From a virus: 10,775 nucleotides of DNA. The position numbers and the translations under genes are program-made. The notes under the pieces are model-generated. The model saw only the letters and a program-made list of their open reading frames with translations, was not told the origin of the DNA and made no database searches. Location: the UHGV virus genome UHGV-1753860, one strand, 5' to 3'. Positions 3,280-8,902 of the stretch are shown here, in pieces (positions within the stretch are counted from its first letter, which is position 1; the number at the start of each line of letters is the position of its first letter).

Positions 3280-3302
3280 AAAAAAGCCGGGAGTAACCCG
3301 GC
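3279..3302 (-). terminator. Intrinsic (rho-independent) terminator for leftward transcription
   Basis: Plus strand reads A7 (3279-3285), GCCGGG (3286-3291), loop AGTAA, CCCGGC (3297-3302). On the minus strand this is a 6-bp GC stem followed by U7. No U-tract follows on the plus strand, so it is oriented for leftward transcripts and abuts the stop codon of the 2572-3279 gene. Confidence 0.6.
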
Positions 3303-3365
3303 TCACTCAACATCAATAACGGGGAGCTGTTTCGCATAAAACGGCTCCGAAACATCCAAGAACAG
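3279..3365 (-). ncRNA. Candidate leftward small RNA (OOP-like position), about 85 nt, ending at the 3279-3302 terminator
   Basis: Minus-strand promoter-like hexamers TTGAAA (complement of 3395-3400), 18-nt spacer, TATCTT (complement of 3371-3376) would start transcription near 3364; the transcript would contain the 3323-3348 hairpin and end at the U7 terminator. No protein-coding capacity. Hypothetical. Confidence 0.25.
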
Positions 3366-3409
3366 TTCTAAAGATATCAGCAGCTATATGATCATTTCAA
3401 GACCAAATA

Positions 3410-3438
3410 TTGATTCTGCAATTTCGGGACGTTAAACT
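3410..3438 (+). promoter_or_regulatory. Candidate sigma70 promoter of small-RNA module 1
   Basis: TTGATT (3410-3415), 17-nt spacer, TAAACT (3433-3438). The same arrangement recurs at 4066-4094 inside a 62-nt block that is 60/62 identical by hand alignment. Confidence 0.5.
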
Positions 3439-3444
3439 GTCTCT

Positions 3445-3521
3445 GCACCTTATAAAGCGGGTGCCGGGGGTCGCAGCCCGGAATTGTCAACGGCGATATA
3501 TGACGCGCCAGCGTCTTTTTT
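3445..3521 (+). ncRNA. Candidate small RNA 1 (about 77 nt): conserved 5' block, hairpin, single-stranded seed GUCAACGG, intrinsic terminator
   Basis: Predicted start G3445; hairpin CCGGG/CCCGG (3464-3481); seed GTCAACGG (3486-3493); terminator GACGC-GCCA-GCGTC followed by T6 (3502-3521). Seed is perfectly complementary to CCGTTGAC at 3590-3597 and identical to GTCAACGG at 3669-3676, which overlaps the GGAGG ribosome-binding site of the Rha gene at 3688. Confidence 0.5.
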
Positions 3522-3687
3522 ATCGTCCGCGCTCACGCACGCCAGAATTATGGTGGGCTGGGCAGGGGAGCCGAAAGGCTCGCCGGTCTCCGTTGACGCC
3601 GGTACTGCGAACCCTGTTCAGTCTGCCACCAGTGAGTTTCGCAGCTCCGGTGGTGGAAGTTTTTCACTGTCAACGGAGGCTGCCATC

Positions 3688-4050
3688 ATGGCTACTGTCC
3701 TAACTTCCCCATTCCTAAAAATCGAAGTCGTCAACGGCAAGGCCGTTATTTTCTCCCTGCATGTTGCCTGCCATTTCAAGCGCATGCACCAGAACATCGT
3801 TGACAAAATCGAGTATCTGAACTGCTCACGCGAGTTTTTTACCCGCAATTTCATACCGGGTACTTATCACATCTACGGTGACTCCCTGCGTGGTTATTAC
3901 ATCACCCTTGATGGTCTGATGATGCTTCAGCTTGGGTTAAGTCTGCGCACAATGCGGTACTACGAGAGCTGTATTGAAGCATTCCATGAGGCTGAAACCG
4001 TCCAGGGTCACTCCGCGTTCCGTCGTAATCAACGGGAGGTGCACCTATGA
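3688..4050 (+). CDS. Rha-family phage regulatory protein (short, about 120 aa, Rha domain only)
   Basis: MATVLTSPFLKIEVVNGKAVIFSLHVACHFKRMHQNIVDKIEYL fits the Rha N-terminal pattern. ATG 3688 has GGAGG 9 nt upstream. The supplied track extends the frame to a TTG at 3484, but that start has no ribosome-binding site. Confidence 0.75.
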   Translation: MATVLTSPFLKIEVVNGKAVIFSLHVACHFKRMHQNIVDKIEYLNCSREFFTRNFIPGTYHIYGDSLRGYYITLDGLMMLQLGLSLRTMRYYESCIEAFHEAETVQGHSAFRRNQREVHL

Positions 4051-4898
4051 TCCGCCACCAGCATATTGATTCTGCAATTTCGGGACGTTACACTGTCTCC
4101 GCACCTTATAAAGCGGGTGCCGGGCGTGGAAACCCGAAATTCAATATAGAGCACAACCGCGCTCATGCGGTTTTTTCGTGTCATGAGCATCGTTACGCCC
4201 AAATTATGGTGGGACGTGCAGGGCCAACTTCGGTTGGGCCGGGTTCTATGTTGACCGGTATTTCCACCCCTGTACGTCTCACCACCTATATGGTCGTGGA
4301 AAGCCTTGGTGGTGAGTTCATTGAATTCAACATAGGGGCTGTCACCATGACTACTCTCCCAGCCCAATCTCACCCTGAAATCACGATTATCAATGGTCGC
4401 GTTGTCACCACATCTCTTGCAGTAGCTAATTACTTTACTAAACGGCATGAGCGGGTTTTAGATAGAATTAGAAACCTCGAATGTTCCGCTGAATTTACTG
4501 AACACAATTTTGTGTTAAGTGAATACACCGACGCATCAGGCCGCAAACTCCCTTGTTACCAAATCACCCGCGACGGTTTTGCGTTTCTTGCCATGGGCTT
4601 CACTGGTAAACGTGCTGCCCAGTTCAAAGAGGCATACATCAACGCCTTTAACCAGATGGAGAAGAATTTATCTGGTGCTGACGCGGTTGATATGTCAGCT
4701 GTCGCACGAAACGCCAGAGGCGTATACCTGCATTTGCGTGAAATCCATCAAATCTGGACAAGCCAGCTTTATCCAATGCTTAAGGCCGTTGAATCTCCGC
4801 TGGCTAGCAAACTGTACGACCGTGTTGGTGATGCTGTTTTTGGCGCTGCACTTGTTGATTCCAGGCTGAATGGTTCTGACAAGGAGGTTCGCCCATGA
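4047..4898 (+). CDS. Rha-family phage regulatory protein; start ambiguous between ATG 4047 (long, 283 aa) and ATG 4347 (Rha domain at the N-terminus, 183 aa)
   Basis: Rha motif VVTTSLAVANYFTKRHERVLDRIRNLE begins about 10 residues after M4347, which fits the family architecture. ATG 4047 has a strong GGAGG 7 nt upstream and overlaps the previous stop (ATGA), and the frame is open throughout, so a long isoform or coupled leader translation cannot be excluded. The 4047-4346 stretch also holds the small-RNA module 2 signals. Confidence 0.7.
   Translation: MIRHQHIDSAISGRYTVSAPYKAGAGRGNPKFNIEHNRAHAVFSCHEHRYAQIMVGRAGPTSVGPGSMLTGISTPVRLTTYMVVESLGGEFIEFNIGAVTMTTLPAQSHPEITIINGRVVTTSLAVANYFTKRHERVLDRIRNLECSAEFTEHNFVLSEYTDASGRKLPCYQITRDGFAFLAMGFTGKRAAQFKEAYINAFNQMEKNLSGADAVDMSAVARNARGVYLHLREIHQIWTSQLYPMLKAVESPLASKLYDRVGDAVFGAALVDSRLNGSDKEVRP
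4066..4094 (+). promoter_or_regulatory. Candidate sigma70 promoter of small-RNA module 2
   Basis: TTGATT (4066-4071), 17-nt spacer, TACACT (4089-4094); paralogous to 3410-3438. Confidence 0.45.
4101..4176 (+). ncRNA. Candidate small RNA 2 (about 76 nt): same architecture as small RNA 1 but with seed UCAAUAUAG
   Basis: Predicted start G4101; hairpin CGGG/CCCG (4121-4136); seed TCAATATAG (4141-4149); terminator ACCGC-GCTCAT-GCGGT followed by T6 (4156-4176). Seed pairs with CTATGTTGA at 4246-4254 (8 Watson-Crick pairs plus one G-U) and matches TCAACATAG at 4327-4335 next to the ribosome-binding site of the Rha start at 4347. Confidence 0.45.
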
Positions 4899-5310: not shown

Positions 5311-5606
5311 ACTGTTTTCAGTTTGTGTGCGGATGTGCTTTCGATAACCCGATTCAGCGCCTGATTATGTTGCGTGTTTTGATGTCGGGTTCTTCAGACG
5401 GTGAAGGCGAGAGAGTTATTGATCATCAGGTGCTTGCTGATTTCTGCTGTTGTTCTAAGCAAGCGATATTCAGGGAAACCCTGGCACTGGAAAGAGCTGG
5501 TTATCTTCATATCCGAAAAATTGCAACGCTTACTATTGATGCAAAAGCCAGACTACAACCTGCGCGTGGCTACACAATTCTCATGCCGCGGAAGGAGGTT
5601 GTATGA
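5307..5606 (+). CDS. Hypothetical protein (99 aa), possibly a winged-helix DNA-binding protein
   Basis: GTG start overlapping the previous stop with GGAGG upstream; the segment VIDHQVLADFCCCSKQAIFRETLALERAGYLHIRK looks like an HTH or winged-helix recognition unit. Weak inference. Confidence 0.45.
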   Translation: MNCFQFVCGCAFDNPIQRLIMLRVLMSGSSDGEGERVIDHQVLADFCCCSKQAIFRETLALERAGYLHIRKIATLTIDAKARLQPARGYTILMPRKEVV

Positions 5607-6595
5607 GCCGTTACGCCCCCACACCGGAAGTTATGGCTATTGGTCAAATTAATATTTCCGGCAATGTTACACCTGCGAACTGGTGGAAATATATTCGACT
5701 ACCCAGTGGGCGTCCGGATGCGACGGCTATCGCTCTGCTTTCAGAGATCGTTTACTGGTACCGCCCGACAGAGGTCAGGGATGAGCACACCGGAGCGTTG
5801 CTGGGATATCGCAAGCGTTTTCAGGGCGACAAACTGCAAAGAAGCTACCAGGCGTTTGCTGAGCAGTTTGGTTTCGGGAAAAGGGAAACCGCAGATGCGC
5901 TGAAGCGTCTGCGCGATGCAGGGTTTATTACTCTGGATTTACGCACGGTGGAAATGCTCGATGGGGTGAAATGCAGCAATATTTTGTTTGTCGGGATCAA
6001 CCCACAGGCAATTGCGGCCATCACCACACCTTCTTCTGTTTCGCCAGAAAGTAACAGCAATAATGCAATCAGCGATACAGCTATTACGTTAAAACGGAAC
6101 ACCCCCCGACGTCATAACGGAACAGGGGATACGCCGAATGTTGATACAAATACAGAGATTACTACAGAGATTACAACGGAGACTAAAAACACTATTGATG
6201 CATCCGCTGACGCGTCTGCGCCAGCGCGTTCTGCCCGACAGGAATATTCACCGGAATTTGAACAGGCCTGGCAGGAATATCCCAAACGTGCTGGTGGCAA
6301 TTCCAAGTCAGCAGCCTTCAAAGCCTGGAAAGCCCGTATCAGGGAGGGAATAAAACCGGAGACCATGCTTGATGGCGTGAAGCGGTATGCCGCCTGGGTA
6401 CGTGCTACAGGAAATACCGGCACACAGTTCGTGAAGCAGGCTGCGACGTTCTTTGGACCCGATCGTCACTTCGAAGATTACTGGCAACAGCCAGCCGCTC
6501 ACGGAGGTGGGCGACAGCGACAGGTCGATGTCCTGGCTGGCCTGGGAGCCATGTCTGACAAATTCGGTAAATCCAGTAACAAATTGACATTCTGA
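5603..6595 (+). CDS. Phage replication initiation protein (O-like, partner of the DnaC-type loader); family assignment tentative
   Basis: 330-aa ORF with GGAGG ribosome-binding site, directly upstream of and translationally coupled to the DnaC-like and DnaB-like genes. Two-domain layout with a Thr/Ser/Asp-rich low-complexity linker whose DNA carries iteron-like repeats. Confidence 0.65.
   Translation: MSRYAPTPEVMAIGQINISGNVTPANWWKYIRLPSGRPDATAIALLSEIVYWYRPTEVRDEHTGALLGYRKRFQGDKLQRSYQAFAEQFGFGKRETADALKRLRDAGFITLDLRTVEMLDGVKCSNILFVGINPQAIAAITTPSSVSPESNSNNAISDTAITLKRNTPRRHNGTGDTPNVDTNTEITTEITTETKNTIDASADASAPARSARQEYSPEFEQAWQEYPKRAGGNSKSAAFKAWKARIREGIKPETMLDGVKRYAAWVRATGNTGTQFVKQAATFFGPDRHFEDYWQQPAAHGGGRQRQVDVLAGLGAMSDKFGKSSNKLTF
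6152..6185. repeat. Iteron-like direct repeats (2.5 copies of a 12-bp unit) inside the initiator gene; candidate origin element
   Basis: ACAGAGATTACT (6152-6163), ACAGAGATTACA (6164-6175), ACGGAGACTA (6176-6185), followed by a GC-rich near-palindrome around GACGCGTC. Lambdoid origins commonly sit inside the initiator gene. Confidence 0.35.
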
Positions 6596-6605
6596 GGTGA
6601 CAGCG

Positions 6606-7505
6606 ATGATGACGATTGACCAACGTGAGAAACAAACAAGACTACAGGCGCGAATGGATGAGTTACGGGCAGAAATGGATGAGTTACGGGCAGAGATTGC
6701 ATTTGCTCAGAAGGGCGAAAAGCCATGGCCTTATCGTTCCTGCCTGATGCGTGAAGGTCACGGATATTGCGAAAAACACGGTAAATATCGTACGCATATA
6801 CTGGTGTGGATCGATCGTAATGGCGAGGACAGAGAAAAAATTTCATGCTGCCCTGACTGCTTGATCGCTGAGGCCAGTGATTTGACCATGGAACTGTCGT
6901 CCCTCAAGGCGGAAGAACTGACTGATAACGCCGGAATTGCTCTGCGTTTTCGGGACTGCGAGTTTGATAATTATCTGGAGGTTAATCCTGACGCAGCCAG
7001 AAATCTTGCGGCCTGTCGCCGCTATGCGGAGAACTGGCCAGATATGCTGGAGAACGGTACCAGTCTTGTTATGACCGGCAGTTGCGGTACCGGGAAAAAT
7101 CATCTGGCGGTATCAATGGCAAAACACATCATCCGTAACTATCTGGCCAGTGTGGAGATCACCGACGTGATGCGCCTTACCCGGGCTGTGAAAAACTGCT
7201 GGCGGAATGACAGTGAAAAAACAGCGGATGACGTCATTGAGCATTATGCGTCACTGGATTTGCTGATTGTCGACGAAGTCGGCGTTCAGTTTGGCAGTGC
7301 GGCTGAAATGGCCATTTTGCAGGAAATTATCAATGCCCGGTATGAGGGTATTTTGCCAACTATCCTGATCAGCAACCTTTCACCGGAAGAATTGTGGGCG
7401 TTCATCAGTCCCCGGATTGCCGACAGGATCACCGATGGCGGGCGCAACTGGTTGTCGTTTAACTGGCCCAGCTACCGTTCTCGTATCGGAGGTGTTGCCG
7501 CATGA
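6606..7505 (+). CDS. DnaC-type (IstB-like AAA+) replicative helicase loader
   Basis: Walker A LVMTGSCGTGKNHLAVSMA resembles E. coli DnaC GKPGTGKNHLAAAI as recalled; Walker B LLIVDEVG; Cys/His cluster near the N-terminus. Start set at ATG 6606 (GAGGTG upstream) rather than the GTG at 6597 in the track. Confidence 0.88.
   Translation: MMTIDQREKQTRLQARMDELRAEMDELRAEIAFAQKGEKPWPYRSCLMREGHGYCEKHGKYRTHILVWIDRNGEDREKISCCPDCLIAEASDLTMELSSLKAEELTDNAGIALRFRDCEFDNYLEVNPDAARNLAACRRYAENWPDMLENGTSLVMTGSCGTGKNHLAVSMAKHIIRNYLASVEITDVMRLTRAVKNCWRNDSEKTADDVIEHYASLDLLIVDEVGVQFGSAAEMAILQEIINARYEGILPTILISNLSPEELWAFISPRIADRITDGGRNWLSFNWPSYRSRIGGVAA
6654..6695 (+). repeat. Perfect-to-near-perfect 21-bp tandem duplication inside the helicase-loader coding sequence
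   Basis: ATGGATGAGTTACGGGCAGAA (6654-6674) is followed by ATGGATGAGTTACGGGCAGAG (6675-6695); in frame, it encodes MDELRAE twice. Confidence 0.9.
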
Positions 7506-8902
7506 CCAGCCAGAACACCCCGGCATGGCGTAACGATGACCTGGAAGGCGCTGTCATCGGTGCGTTTTTTCTGCGTGGGGCCGATCCGGAAGTGATGGAT
7601 ATTCTGGCCACACTTCCGGCGGATGTATTTTTTGTGCGTCAGTACCGGGATATTTACGCGGGGATTTGCAGACAGGCTCGCATATCCGGCGTCATTGACC
7701 CCGTACTGCTGTGCAATGAGATGCCGGAACTTGCCCCGGTGATTACCGACACCGGACGCAAAACCTGGGTGAAGTCTTCACTGGAGCACTATGTCGCAGC
7801 GTTGCGGCGCAATGCCGCACTGCGCGATGCAGAAAAAACACTGACTGAAGCATTACAGAATTTACGTGATGCGTATACCTGTGAAGCAGCCGAGGATGCC
7901 CTGAAGGATGTGCAGAACATGATGGCCTCACTGTCGACCGGAAAGGGCGTCATTCAGCCGGTTCACATTGATGATGTCCTTCCGGAAGTGGTCGACCGTG
8001 TTGAATGCCGCAATCAGGGACTGGAGAAATCCAGGGCACTGATGACCGGTATTGATGAACTGGACGCAAAAACGGGCGGTATGGAGCCCGGAGACCTGGT
8101 ATTCATTGCCGCCCGTCCTTCGATGGGGAAAACCGAACTTGCGCTGGACATCATCGACAAGGTGACTGAGCAGGGGCATGGCGTGCTTCTGTTCACCATG
8201 GAGATGGCGAACATCCAGATTGGTGAACGTATGGTGTCTGCTGCCGGTGGAATGCCGGTATCCCGTCTTAAGTCTGTTGCCAGTTTTGAAGATGAAGACT
8301 GGGCGCGTTTCTCGCAGGGCGTGGGACGAATGACGGGGCGTAATATCTGGATGGTGGATCAGGCAAACCTGACCATTGATGAGATATGTGCAACCACGAA
8401 GCACCACCGGATGAAACACCCGGAAACGGCGCTGGTGGTGGTCGATTACCTCGGTCTGATTAAAACCCGCAGCACGGGGCGTCACGACCTTGCTGTGGGG
8501 GAAATCTCAAAGGGACTTAAAAGCCTGGCAAAATCCGGCGGTTTCCCGCTGATTGCTCTGAGCCAGCTCTCCCGAGGCGTGGAATCCAGACCCAATAAAC
8601 GTCCCATGAACTCAGACCTGAAAAACTCCGGGGAAATAGAGGCTGATGCCGACATCATTCTGATGCTTTACAGGGATGAGGTGTATAACCCGGATACACA
8701 GGCCAGAGGCATAGCAGAAATCAACATCACGAAACAGCGTAATGGCACACTCGGGACCATTTACCGGCGTTTTCATAACGGACATTTTCTGCCTGTGGAC
8801 CAGGAGAGTGCCCGGGTTCTTTCCACACCCATGACGCCGGGCAATCCGCGCAGATACAGCAATTACCGCATGTCGGGCAGTAAAACGGAGCGTTTATTTT
8901 GA
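7502..8902 (+). CDS. Replicative DNA helicase, DnaB family
   Basis: Walker A GDLVFIAARPSMGKTELAL; Walker B VVVDYLGLI; the hallmark stretch IALSQLSRGVESRPNKRPMNSDLKNSGEIEADADIILMLYRDEVYNP. ATG 7502 overlaps the upstream stop; GGAGG 9 nt upstream. Confidence 0.93.
   Translation: MTSQNTPAWRNDDLEGAVIGAFFLRGADPEVMDILATLPADVFFVRQYRDIYAGICRQARISGVIDPVLLCNEMPELAPVITDTGRKTWVKSSLEHYVAALRRNAALRDAEKTLTEALQNLRDAYTCEAAEDALKDVQNMMASLSTGKGVIQPVHIDDVLPEVVDRVECRNQGLEKSRALMTGIDELDAKTGGMEPGDLVFIAARPSMGKTELALDIIDKVTEQGHGVLLFTMEMANIQIGERMVSAAGGMPVSRLKSVASFEDEDWARFSQGVGRMTGRNIWMVDQANLTIDEICATTKHHRMKHPETALVVVDYLGLIKTRSTGRHDLAVGEISKGLKSLAKSGGFPLIALSQLSRGVESRPNKRPMNSDLKNSGEIEADADIILMLYRDEVYNPDTQARGIAEINITKQRNGTLGTIYRRFHNGHFLPVDQESARVLSTPMTPGNPRRYSNYRMSGSKTERLF

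Follow-up and report, generated by a model that had tools for sequence, protein, structure and literature searches.

Do two tandem leaders in one prophage each answer to an RNA of their own? The question arises from the viral genome UHGV-1753860, analysed here at its full length of 10,775 nucleotides (nt; the window), in which two Rha-type genes follow one another, each behind a leader bearing repeated short sequences. The window corresponds to the immunity and early-right region of an Escherichia coli lambdoid prophage. An earlier note on this DNA had read the leaders as two 'small RNA plus target' modules in which RNA pairing gates antirepressor-like genes. Riboregulation by RNA pairing ahead of Rha-type genes is supported by two Rfam families, by covariation and by the bias of mismatches towards G·U; the module itself proves to have three parts, not two. 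Each module is an IsrK-C4 RNA immunity element of the P1 immI, P4 and Gifsy-1 type, a long-known system that appears in the literature as c4 or c4-a1b1 (PMC2864571), as the 'IsrK-C4 immunity system' (PMC3632133) and as isrK-orf45-anrP (PMC4825925). We consider it highly probable that the window carries two such modules in tandem, each made up of a C4 repressor, an isrK-like decoy or activator, and an a2 b2 target in the leader of the rha gene.

Anatomy of the two modules

Both leaders hold an isrK-like RNA and a C4 RNA. When they were scanned against Rfam, a check that the earlier note had proposed, each module matched isrK (RF01394, gathering score 50 bits) and C4 (RF01695, gathering score 45 bits) above the gathering score (Table 1), with the C4 matches spanning model positions 1-87 of 87. 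The sister model c4-a1b1 (RF03163) scored both modules below its 46.7-bit threshold (17.1 and 25.0 bits); in P1, P4, Gifsy-1 and L107 the isrK and c4-a1b1 models match one and the same element. Members of the isrK and c4-a1b1 families are discrete Hfq-binding small RNAs transcribed from their own promoter, and C4 RNAs are released by RNase P from longer precursors, are then about 77 nt in length and repress in trans; the c4 system of phage P1/P7 immI (RF01695, RF03163) was reportedly described by Citron and Schuster in 1990. Relative to P1, the roles given to the RNAs in the earlier note are reversed: there it is C4 that represses in trans, while the small RNA ending at the terminator has been proposed to act as a decoy or activator.

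Table 1. Features of the two modules, with window coordinates
Feature	Coordinates	Strand	Sequence or match
Module 1 promoter, sigma-70-type (predicted)	3410-3438	+	-35 TTGATT 3410-3415, 17-nt spacer, -10 TAAACT 3433-3438
Module 1 isrK-like (c4-a1b1) small RNA	3445-3521	+	Rfam RF01394 isrK, 58.7 bits, full length 1-77
Module 1 a1	3471-3476	+	TCGCAG; loop of isrK hairpin 2
Module 1 b1	3485-3493	+	TGTCAACGG; includes seed A
Module 1 site A	3486-3493	+	GTCAACGG
Module 1 terminator	3502-3521	+	GACGC/GCGTC + T6; terminator scan
Module 1 C4-like antisense RNA	3546-3633	+	Rfam RF01695, 78.8 bits; 88 nt
Module 1 site B	3590-3597	+	CCGTTGAC; reverse complement of A
Module 1 a2 (predicted target)	3638-3644	+	TTCGCAG; complement of a′
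Module 1 b2 (predicted target)	3668-3679	+	TGTCAACGGAGG; holds A2, covers Shine-Dalgarno GGAGG
Module 1 site A2	3669-3676	+	GTCAACGG
Gene 1 (putatively regulated)	3688-4050	+	120-amino-acid protein, Rha N-terminal domain only
Module 2 promoter (predicted)	4066-4094	+	-35 TTGATT 4066-4071, -10 TACACT 4089-4094
Module 2 isrK-like small RNA	4101-4177	+	Rfam RF01394 isrK, 61.6 bits
Module 2 a1	4126-4132	+	GTGGAAA; in isrK-like RNA
Module 2 b1	4141-4152	+	TCAATATAGAGC; holds seed A
Module 2 site A	4141-4149	+	TCAATATAG
Module 2 terminator	4155-4177	+	AACCGC/GCGGTT + T-run; terminator scan
Module 2 C4-like antisense RNA	4202-4289	+	Rfam RF01695, 83.0 bits
Module 2 site B	4246-4254	+	CTATGTTGA
Module 2 a2 (predicted target)	4296-4302	+	GTGGAAA; complement of a′
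Module 2 b2 (predicted target)	4327-4337	+	TCAACATAGGG; holds A2, overlaps Shine-Dalgarno; duplex -14.9 kcal/mol
Module 2 site A2	4327-4335	+	TCAACATAG
Gene 2 (putatively regulated)	4347-4898	+	183-amino-acid Rha-family regulator, antirepressor-like

Folds and the terminator scan give the isrK-like RNA a pair of 5′ hairpins, the second of which carries a1 in its loop; b1 comes directly after this hairpin, and an intrinsic terminator ends the RNA. The scan recovered the terminator stems of both modules as they had been described. Transcription is predicted to start at G3445 in module 1 and G4101 in module 2. The 5′ blocks (3407-3468 and 4063-4124) are identical at 60/62 positions, and the repeat reaches 79 nt at 91% identity (3407-3485 and 4063-4141).

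The C4 RNA of module 1 is built from a 17-base-pair (bp) outer stem (P1), a P2 tetraloop hairpin (3568-3581) and a P3 stem (3582-3586/3599-3603) that closes the b′ loop (3587-3598), with the junction a′, CTGCGAA, at 3605-3611. Its counterpart in module 2 has its P2 hairpin at 4224-4237, its b′ loop GTTCTATGTTGA at 4243-4254 and its a′, TTTCCAC, at 4261-4267. The mid-leader hairpins of the earlier note are thus present as C4 helix P2, while site B, because the Rfam C4 match covers it, is assigned to the 12-nt loop of helix P3 and so belongs to an 88-nt structured RNA. The minimum free energy (MFE) structure equals the Rfam structure in both modules (-47.8 kcal/mol, z = -4.34 for module 1; -45.1 kcal/mol, z = -5.42 for module 2), with GAAA and UUCG as the tetraloops. 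Mature C4 RNAs of about 79 nt are predicted at ~3552-3630 and ~4208-4286, with boundaries set by analogy with the annotated P1 c4; the 5′ context AUUAU/GGUGGG is shared with P1, whose mature c4 starts at the first G of GGUGGG.

The repeats, hairpins and distances reported earlier are all found in the window, well above chance. GTCAACGG occurs four times against 0.40 expected and TCAAYATAG three times against 0.10, counts that 0/200 shuffles reach in either case, and the A-B and B-A2 spacings are 104 and 79 nt in module 1 and 105 and 81 nt in module 2. A2 had been called identical to A; this holds in module 1, whereas in module 2 the two differ by one T/C change that still pairs with B as G·U. 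In both modules A2 overlaps the Shine-Dalgarno sequence, as had been stated. The ribosome-binding sites are GGAGG at 3675-3679, 8 nt 5′ of ATG 3688, and TAGGGG 5′ of ATG 4347, two start codons that correct those of the earlier note. Unnoticed at first was a second recognition trio, a1/a′/a2, which is present in both modules (TCGCAG/CTGCGAA/TTCGCAG and GTGGAAA/TTTCCAC/GTGGAAA). In module 1, b2 pairs with all 12 nt of the b′ loop (12/12; duplex -22.7 kcal/mol) and a′ with a2 at 7/7; in module 2, b′:b2 comprises 11 pairs including G·U and a′:a2 again 7/7. The order a1 b1, C4 (b′ a′), a2 b2, gene is therefore the classic layout of P1 immI, P4 and Gifsy-1. As had been claimed, the two copies bear different recognition sequences, and they do so in both keys: TCGCAG against GTGGAAA for a, and GTCAACGG against TCAAYATAG for b. 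Two further candidate sites, both within open reading frame (ORF) 1, were rejected. The fourth GTCAACGG (3730-3737, codons VVNG) is a coincidental match, because the same codons stand behind modules of five other seed classes; the other was CGTTGAC at 3798 (CGTTGACAA, 3798-3806).

The resemblance to P1/P7 c4-ant and Gifsy-1 IsrK-AnrP, pointed out in the earlier note, reflects true homology, as seen in the Rfam matches, the alignment with P1 and the anatomy of Gifsy-1. The P1 immI record is annotated in the order P1c4 promoter, a1, b1, c4, a2, b2, icd, ant, the same order as in the window. Its alignment with the two modules (alignment A2) begins in the small RNA, ends at the start codon and takes in the AUUAUGGUGGG processing context. 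The spacing matches, b2 lies over the Shine-Dalgarno sequence, and there are two determinants, a′ and b′; in P1/P7, heteroimmunity is set by a/b differences. P1 regulates icd and the Ant1/Ant2 antirepressor, whereas the window genes are of the Rha family (PF09669). P1 is also a plasmid prophage with one module, unlike the lambdoid prophage of the window with its two differently keyed modules, in which no C1 operator is known.

The isrK locus of Gifsy-1 likewise combines isrK, a C4-like RNA and a2/b2, with b2 over the Shine-Dalgarno sequence of an antirepressor-like gene, and the start and terminator of its isrK were mapped experimentally (PMC4825925). In Gifsy-1, orf45 starts at the AUG of C4 (+106/107), which stands at +106 in the window; orf45 ends at the start codon of the regulated gene, whereas the window frame runs stop-free into Rha. 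AnrP and the window Rha proteins are not homologous by BLASTP (expectation value E = 3.5). The one module of Gifsy-1 follows antQ in the late region, in contrast to the early-right operon of the window. A full C4 of 69 bits is found in Gifsy-1 (L258, 34076-34316, minus strand), with b′ UCGGUGAU and b2 AUCACCGGAGG over the anrP Shine-Dalgarno sequence; the sections of the published model consulted here (PMC4825925) do not take up this b′:b2 pairing.

Phage P4 (seqA, CI RNA = seqB, seqC) carries homologous RNAs (isrK 60.8 bits, C4 74.9 bits) and, like the window, sets one antisense RNA between two complementary sites; it has a single module, which according to the literature acts mainly by premature transcription termination of the replication operon. 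IsrK-C4 has been noted by Barquist et al. in P4, P1, P7, N15 and lambdoid prophages (PMC3632133), APSE phages have isrK and C4 pairs ahead of genes of the BRO family (PMC7313666), and C4-derived small RNAs are reported from Acinetobacter (PMC5320573). In the APSE and Acinetobacter cases the same two Rfam families precede antirepressor or BRO-type genes, and variable a′/b′ loops give specificity; tandem differently keyed arrays, as in the window, are not reported for them.

Covariation and predicted specificity of the keys

Pattern scans of viral and GTDB contigs returned 209 C4 modules, 185 of them unique. An outer-stem pattern with an 8-nt spacer, as in the window, delimits the close subfamily on viral contigs, while a 9-nt-spacer pattern recovers a homologous sister subfamily from Pseudomonas, Pectobacterium, Burkholderia and others, which was used for the broad covariation table. 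The 185 unique modules combine 118 b′ loops with 61 a′ junctions in 140 combinations. Nearly all have sites that match their own C4, at about -80 (a1), -65 (b1), +10 (a2) and +40 (b2), and b2 lies over the Shine-Dalgarno sequence in nearly all of the 140 classes, usually with a GGAG end.

Within the close subfamily, 24 distinct specificity classes were aligned with MAFFT (alignment A1) and named structures were counted; the sequences had been selected for the shape of their C4 and isrK RNAs, and complementarity of the sites played no part in the choice. Structures including b′:b2 and a′:a2 pair in 94.7% of alignment cells, against 38-44% when slid (covariation score 0.387 vs <=0.076), and those including b1:b′ and a1:a′ in 95.2%, against 38-45% (0.450 vs <=0.078); the observed values were reached by 0/500 shuffles for both sets. 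Taken singly, a1:a′ pairs in 97.6% of cells and b1:b′ in 88%. Changes on both sides of a pair occur in b′:b2 (7/12), a′:a2 (5/5), a1:a′ (6/7) and b1:b′ (8/12), and the C4 stems behave alike, with P1 pairing in 100% of cells and four of its pairs changing on both sides, and P2 at 4/5. The a′:a2 counts are conservative because MAFFT shifted a2 by one column in five module-2-type sequences, a shift that is the source of most of the 11 A·C cells. The joint change of A, B and A2 that the earlier note expected of homologous loci is therefore found across 24 classes, with slid controls far lower. Mismatches across the helices comprise 236 G·U against 18 A·C, a strand-specific signature which argues for pairing of plus-strand RNA and against a DNA operator.

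The a and b keys also assort independently. The module 2 loop GTTCTATGTTGA is seen with the junctions TATTTCCAC, TTACGCCAA and TTTCTCAC, each variant having matching a1/a2 sequences, so that changes must have been coordinated at three separated places.

How far, then, are the two modules of the window insulated from one another? For the determinant segments, the predicted energies are -33.2 kcal/mol for C4-1 with target 1 and -24.0 kcal/mol for C4-2 with target 2, as against -16.6 kcal/mol for C4-1 with target 2 and -9.9 kcal/mol for C4-2 with target 1. Decoy duplexes follow the same pattern (cognate -26.7 and -24.2 kcal/mol; cross -11.3 and -12.4 kcal/mol). Over all 24 classes the mean is -28.2 ± 3.0 kcal/mol for cognate and -12.6 ± 4.9 kcal/mol for non-cognate pairs, and the best partner is the cognate target in 24/24. 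Since all three partners have changed in step, each C4 and its decoy are predicted to be private to their own gene. The claim that the modules do not cross-react thus holds insofar as the keys differ and the cognate energies are stronger, as a thermodynamic prediction. A value of -24.6 kcal/mol for C4-2 with the whole module 1 leader was set aside in favour of the site-restricted one; it was traced to GUGGAAG at 3653-3659, a lineage-conserved stretch outside the a2 register. This stretch, within GGTGGTGGAAG, can form 8 bp with the module 2 a′ (one G·U) and may be a minor cross-talk site.

Mechanism and rival explanations

Taking the homologous systems as a guide, we infer how the modules would be transcribed and processed, the direction in which they would regulate, and their orthogonality in vivo. 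Read-through or upstream transcripts would yield C4, cut out as by RNase P in P1. Its a′ and b′ would then pair with a2 and b2, in trans or in cis, blocking Rha translation and probably also exerting polarity on the downstream genes. The isrK-like RNA can be viewed as a target mimic because it shares its a and b sequences with the messenger RNA (mRNA), and it would titrate C4 or open the leader, turning translation on. In P1, c4 is excised by RNase P and its a′/b′ pair with a2/b2, blocking the ribosome-binding site (PMC5320573, PMC12197685), and a1/b1 have been proposed to compete with a2/b2 for c4 (PMC2864571, supplement 1). Gifsy-1 IsrK activates in trans the translation of the read-through isrK-orf45-anrP mRNA, and a processed stable RNA, STnc1160, arises from the C4 position in Salmonella (PMC4825925).

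Several observations weigh against this scheme. In full-leader MFE folds, module 1 prefers a cis b′:b2 helix that disrupts C4, while module 2 keeps C4; with folds this ambiguous, action in cis and in trans are inseparable from sequence. The Gifsy-1 model (PMC4825925) invokes alternative leader structures and orf45 translation, with no C4:b2 block. The C4 AUG is in frame with the Rha ORF in both modules, so that ribosomes may also translate part of the 'RNA'. The genes behind the modules encode Rha-type proteins, neither Icd/Ant nor AnrP. The b keys share a GUUGA/UCAAC core, with a b-only cross-pairing of -10 kcal/mol, and because of these five bases cross-pairing is lowered, not nil. Lastly, the promoters proposed in the earlier note stand as to position and pattern, TTGnnn-N17-TAnAnT being kept in 24 related modules and in the annotated P1c4 promoter, but they match the consensus at 8/12 positions and fall under the cut-off of the promoter scan.

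A leader acting in cis only is a serious contender for the same facts, if on balance an unlikely one. Here, b′ would be an anti-Shine-Dalgarno element within the read-through transcript, the small RNA would be the sole trans regulator, and a free C4 would have no role, which is the arrangement nearest to that of the earlier note. The long cis b′:b2 helix of module 1 would sequester the Shine-Dalgarno sequence in just this way, and in Gifsy-1 IsrK in trans raises anrP at least 100-fold and compensatory mutations back intramolecular helices between isrK and the C4 region (PMC4825925). A plain anti-Shine-Dalgarno element, however, needs neither the covarying 17-bp outer stem nor the AUUAU/GGUGGG RNase P context, both of which are kept. 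The C4 fold retained by the module 2 leader, the STnc1160 RNA seen in Salmonella (PMC4825925) and the trans action of P1 c4 (PMC5320573, PMC12197685) speak likewise for a C4 RNA with a role of its own.

Control of the P4 type would shift the effect from translation to transcription, with C4 acting on nascent a1b1/a2b2 mainly to set premature termination and so to gate read-through from PR and from the promoters of the modules into the Rha genes and the replication genes beyond them. The isrK and C4 pair recurs in P4, whose CI RNA acts via termination (PMC3632133, PMC4825925). In the window, both modules have intrinsic terminators, in series before same-strand replication genes, and such an arrangement makes P4-like termination or polarity a reasonable rival or addition, though we doubt that it is the main mode of action. 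The position of b2 exactly over the Shine-Dalgarno sequence, with GGAG ends, in nearly all 140 classes points instead to a translational target as in P1, and termination could be a secondary effect of polarity. Both small-RNA terminators are on the coding strand, downstream of the cro/ant-like genes and upstream of the replication genes (5603-8902); module read-through may therefore gate the expression of the latter, as in P4.

Very improbable, in our judgement, is a protein-coding origin of the pattern, in which an 'Ash' domain would be the N-terminus of long Ash-Rha proteins and the repeats by-products of coding. Current annotation takes this form. In a 99.8%-identical RefSeq genome the RNAs are unannotated, and PGAP proteins of 220 amino acids ('ash family') and 283 amino acids (Rha) span the modules. 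Pfam PF10554 (Phage_ASH) matches the translation of the isrK and C4 stretch at 36.8-59.2 bits against a cut-off of 26 (E 6e-16 to 6e-9), and it has been used as a protein marker in published work (PMC8951638, PMC8628076). The stretches matched by PF10554 coincide with RNA genes (window 3388-4050 and 4047-4898; phage P4, L257, 8168-8584), and RefSeq/PGAP and PHROG families lengthen the Rha ORFs by 100-140 codons across the RNAs. Over 120 nt, the C4 AUG frame lacks stops more often than the other frames do (64% against 21-34%), and in Gifsy-1 this AUG opens orf45, which is translated (PMC4825925).

Against coding stands the structure of the region itself. In the window, the 'Ash' ORF of module 1 is cut short by an in-frame stop, the TAA at 3433-3435. 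C4 lengths vary over 73-84 nt, mostly in non-multiples of three, with loops of 10-14 nt, and the C4 AUG and the gene start are in different frames in 44% of modules. Substitutions are compensatory within RNA helices, where G·U is accepted and A·C is not, and a strong Shine-Dalgarno sequence with an invariant ATG marks the real starts. In P4, PF10554 matches an obsolete 'cI protein' ORF overlapping the CI RNA, while the true epsilon (Ash) protein is PF25738. On this evidence of frame, length and P4, we judge the 'Ash' domain to be mainly an artefact of translating an RNA region. The C4 AUGs of the window, at 3550-3552 and 4206-4208, lie in frame and stop-free, 46 and 47 codons upstream of the Rha starts. 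In P1 (L256) the mature c4 begins with the G of the corresponding AUG (742-744); RNase P cleavage would therefore destroy the start codon and exclude initiation. Some translation of unprocessed transcripts from the C4 AUG is nevertheless possible, since this frame is often open and orf45 starts there in Gifsy-1.

Binding of A, B and A2 (two direct, one inverted) as DNA operators by a phage regulator such as Rha would account for repeated 8-9-mers beside promoters and genes for DNA-binding proteins, but we reject it as scarcely credible given the strand asymmetry of the mismatches, the location of the sites in loops of covarying RNAs matched by two Rfam models, a module 2 A/A2 difference that preserves RNA pairing only, and half-sites lying 80-105 nt apart without dyad symmetry.

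Genomic setting, tandem arrays and significance

The genes of the window run in the order LexA-like CI (1580-2311), cro-like, Ant-like, the two modules, and then O-like, DnaC-like and DnaB-like replication genes. That the two genes behind the modules are Rha paralogs, as the earlier note had it, is borne out, with both products matching Pfam Phage_pRha (PF09669) and sharing 35% identity (E 5e-20). Gene 1 begins at an ATG (3688) that does not vary within alignment A1; its product passes the 29.9-bit cut-off at 30.0 bits and falls in PHROG 995 (E 1.6e-55); gene 2 scores 109 bits and falls in PHROG 821 (E 1.5e-105). E. coli JKHS016 is 99.8% identical to the window, and the full tandem is carried by 94/5426 complete E. 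coli genomes. Module 1 occurs on its own in Stx2a phages, with close relatives in Shiga-toxin phages, and module 2 on its own in Salmonella ST64B-like phages and Stx phages.

A candidate leftward small RNA lies between the Ant-like gene and module 1 (3284-3400, minus strand). A sequence resembling a promoter (3400-3371), with 9/12 positions matching and a TG, precedes two hairpins and a strong U7 terminator at 3304-3284; the fold has z = -3.7, and the placement of the candidate resembles that of lambda oop RNA. An Rfam scan of this candidate gave no family above threshold (sroD, 24.5 bits vs 50).

Tandem arrangements are found in a minority of the family. Among ~195 loci, C4 modules come in pairs at 12 and as a triplet at one; the tandem loci, confirmed by Rfam, include Symbiopectobacterium, Janthinobacterium and Pectobacterium. 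The triple locus, L185 (IMGVR_UViG_2671181028_000005, 9647-11212, minus strand), sets three isrK-C4 modules at an exact spacing of 656 nt, with a near-identical 120-amino-acid Rha-N ORF behind each and an a key and a b key that differ from module to module; its predicted 3x3 energy matrix is diagonal. The unit of L185 appears to be a repeatable cassette. No description of tandem IsrK/C4 arrays was found in the searchable literature, a search that mostly does not reach the older P1/P4 papers.

Because each module is a textbook-type phage RNA switch, the chief value of the analysis lies in correct annotation. The differently keyed tandem, the independent assortment of a and b keys and the mis-annotation as Ash are modest additions to a known system. 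We put forward tentatively, and as somewhat less probable than its contrary, the broader proposal that arrays of two or three privately keyed locks constitute a combinatorial RNA 'barcode' immunity and that the Ash domain is largely conceptual translation. If this were true, one prophage with several C4s and decoys could silence or sense heteroimmune antirepressor modules in a polylysogen, and the keys would be under diversifying selection demanding coordinated triple changes.

The tandem offers a natural side-by-side case of putatively orthogonal antisense, decoy and target triplets. As a compact system, it lends itself to asking how many base differences suffice to insulate RNA regulators and how three interacting sites evolve in step, and the 140 specificity classes could supply a parts list for synthetic orthogonal riboregulators. 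For the phages themselves, it bears on whether lambdoid prophages in polylysogens control antirepressors, and hence induction, through private RNA channels.

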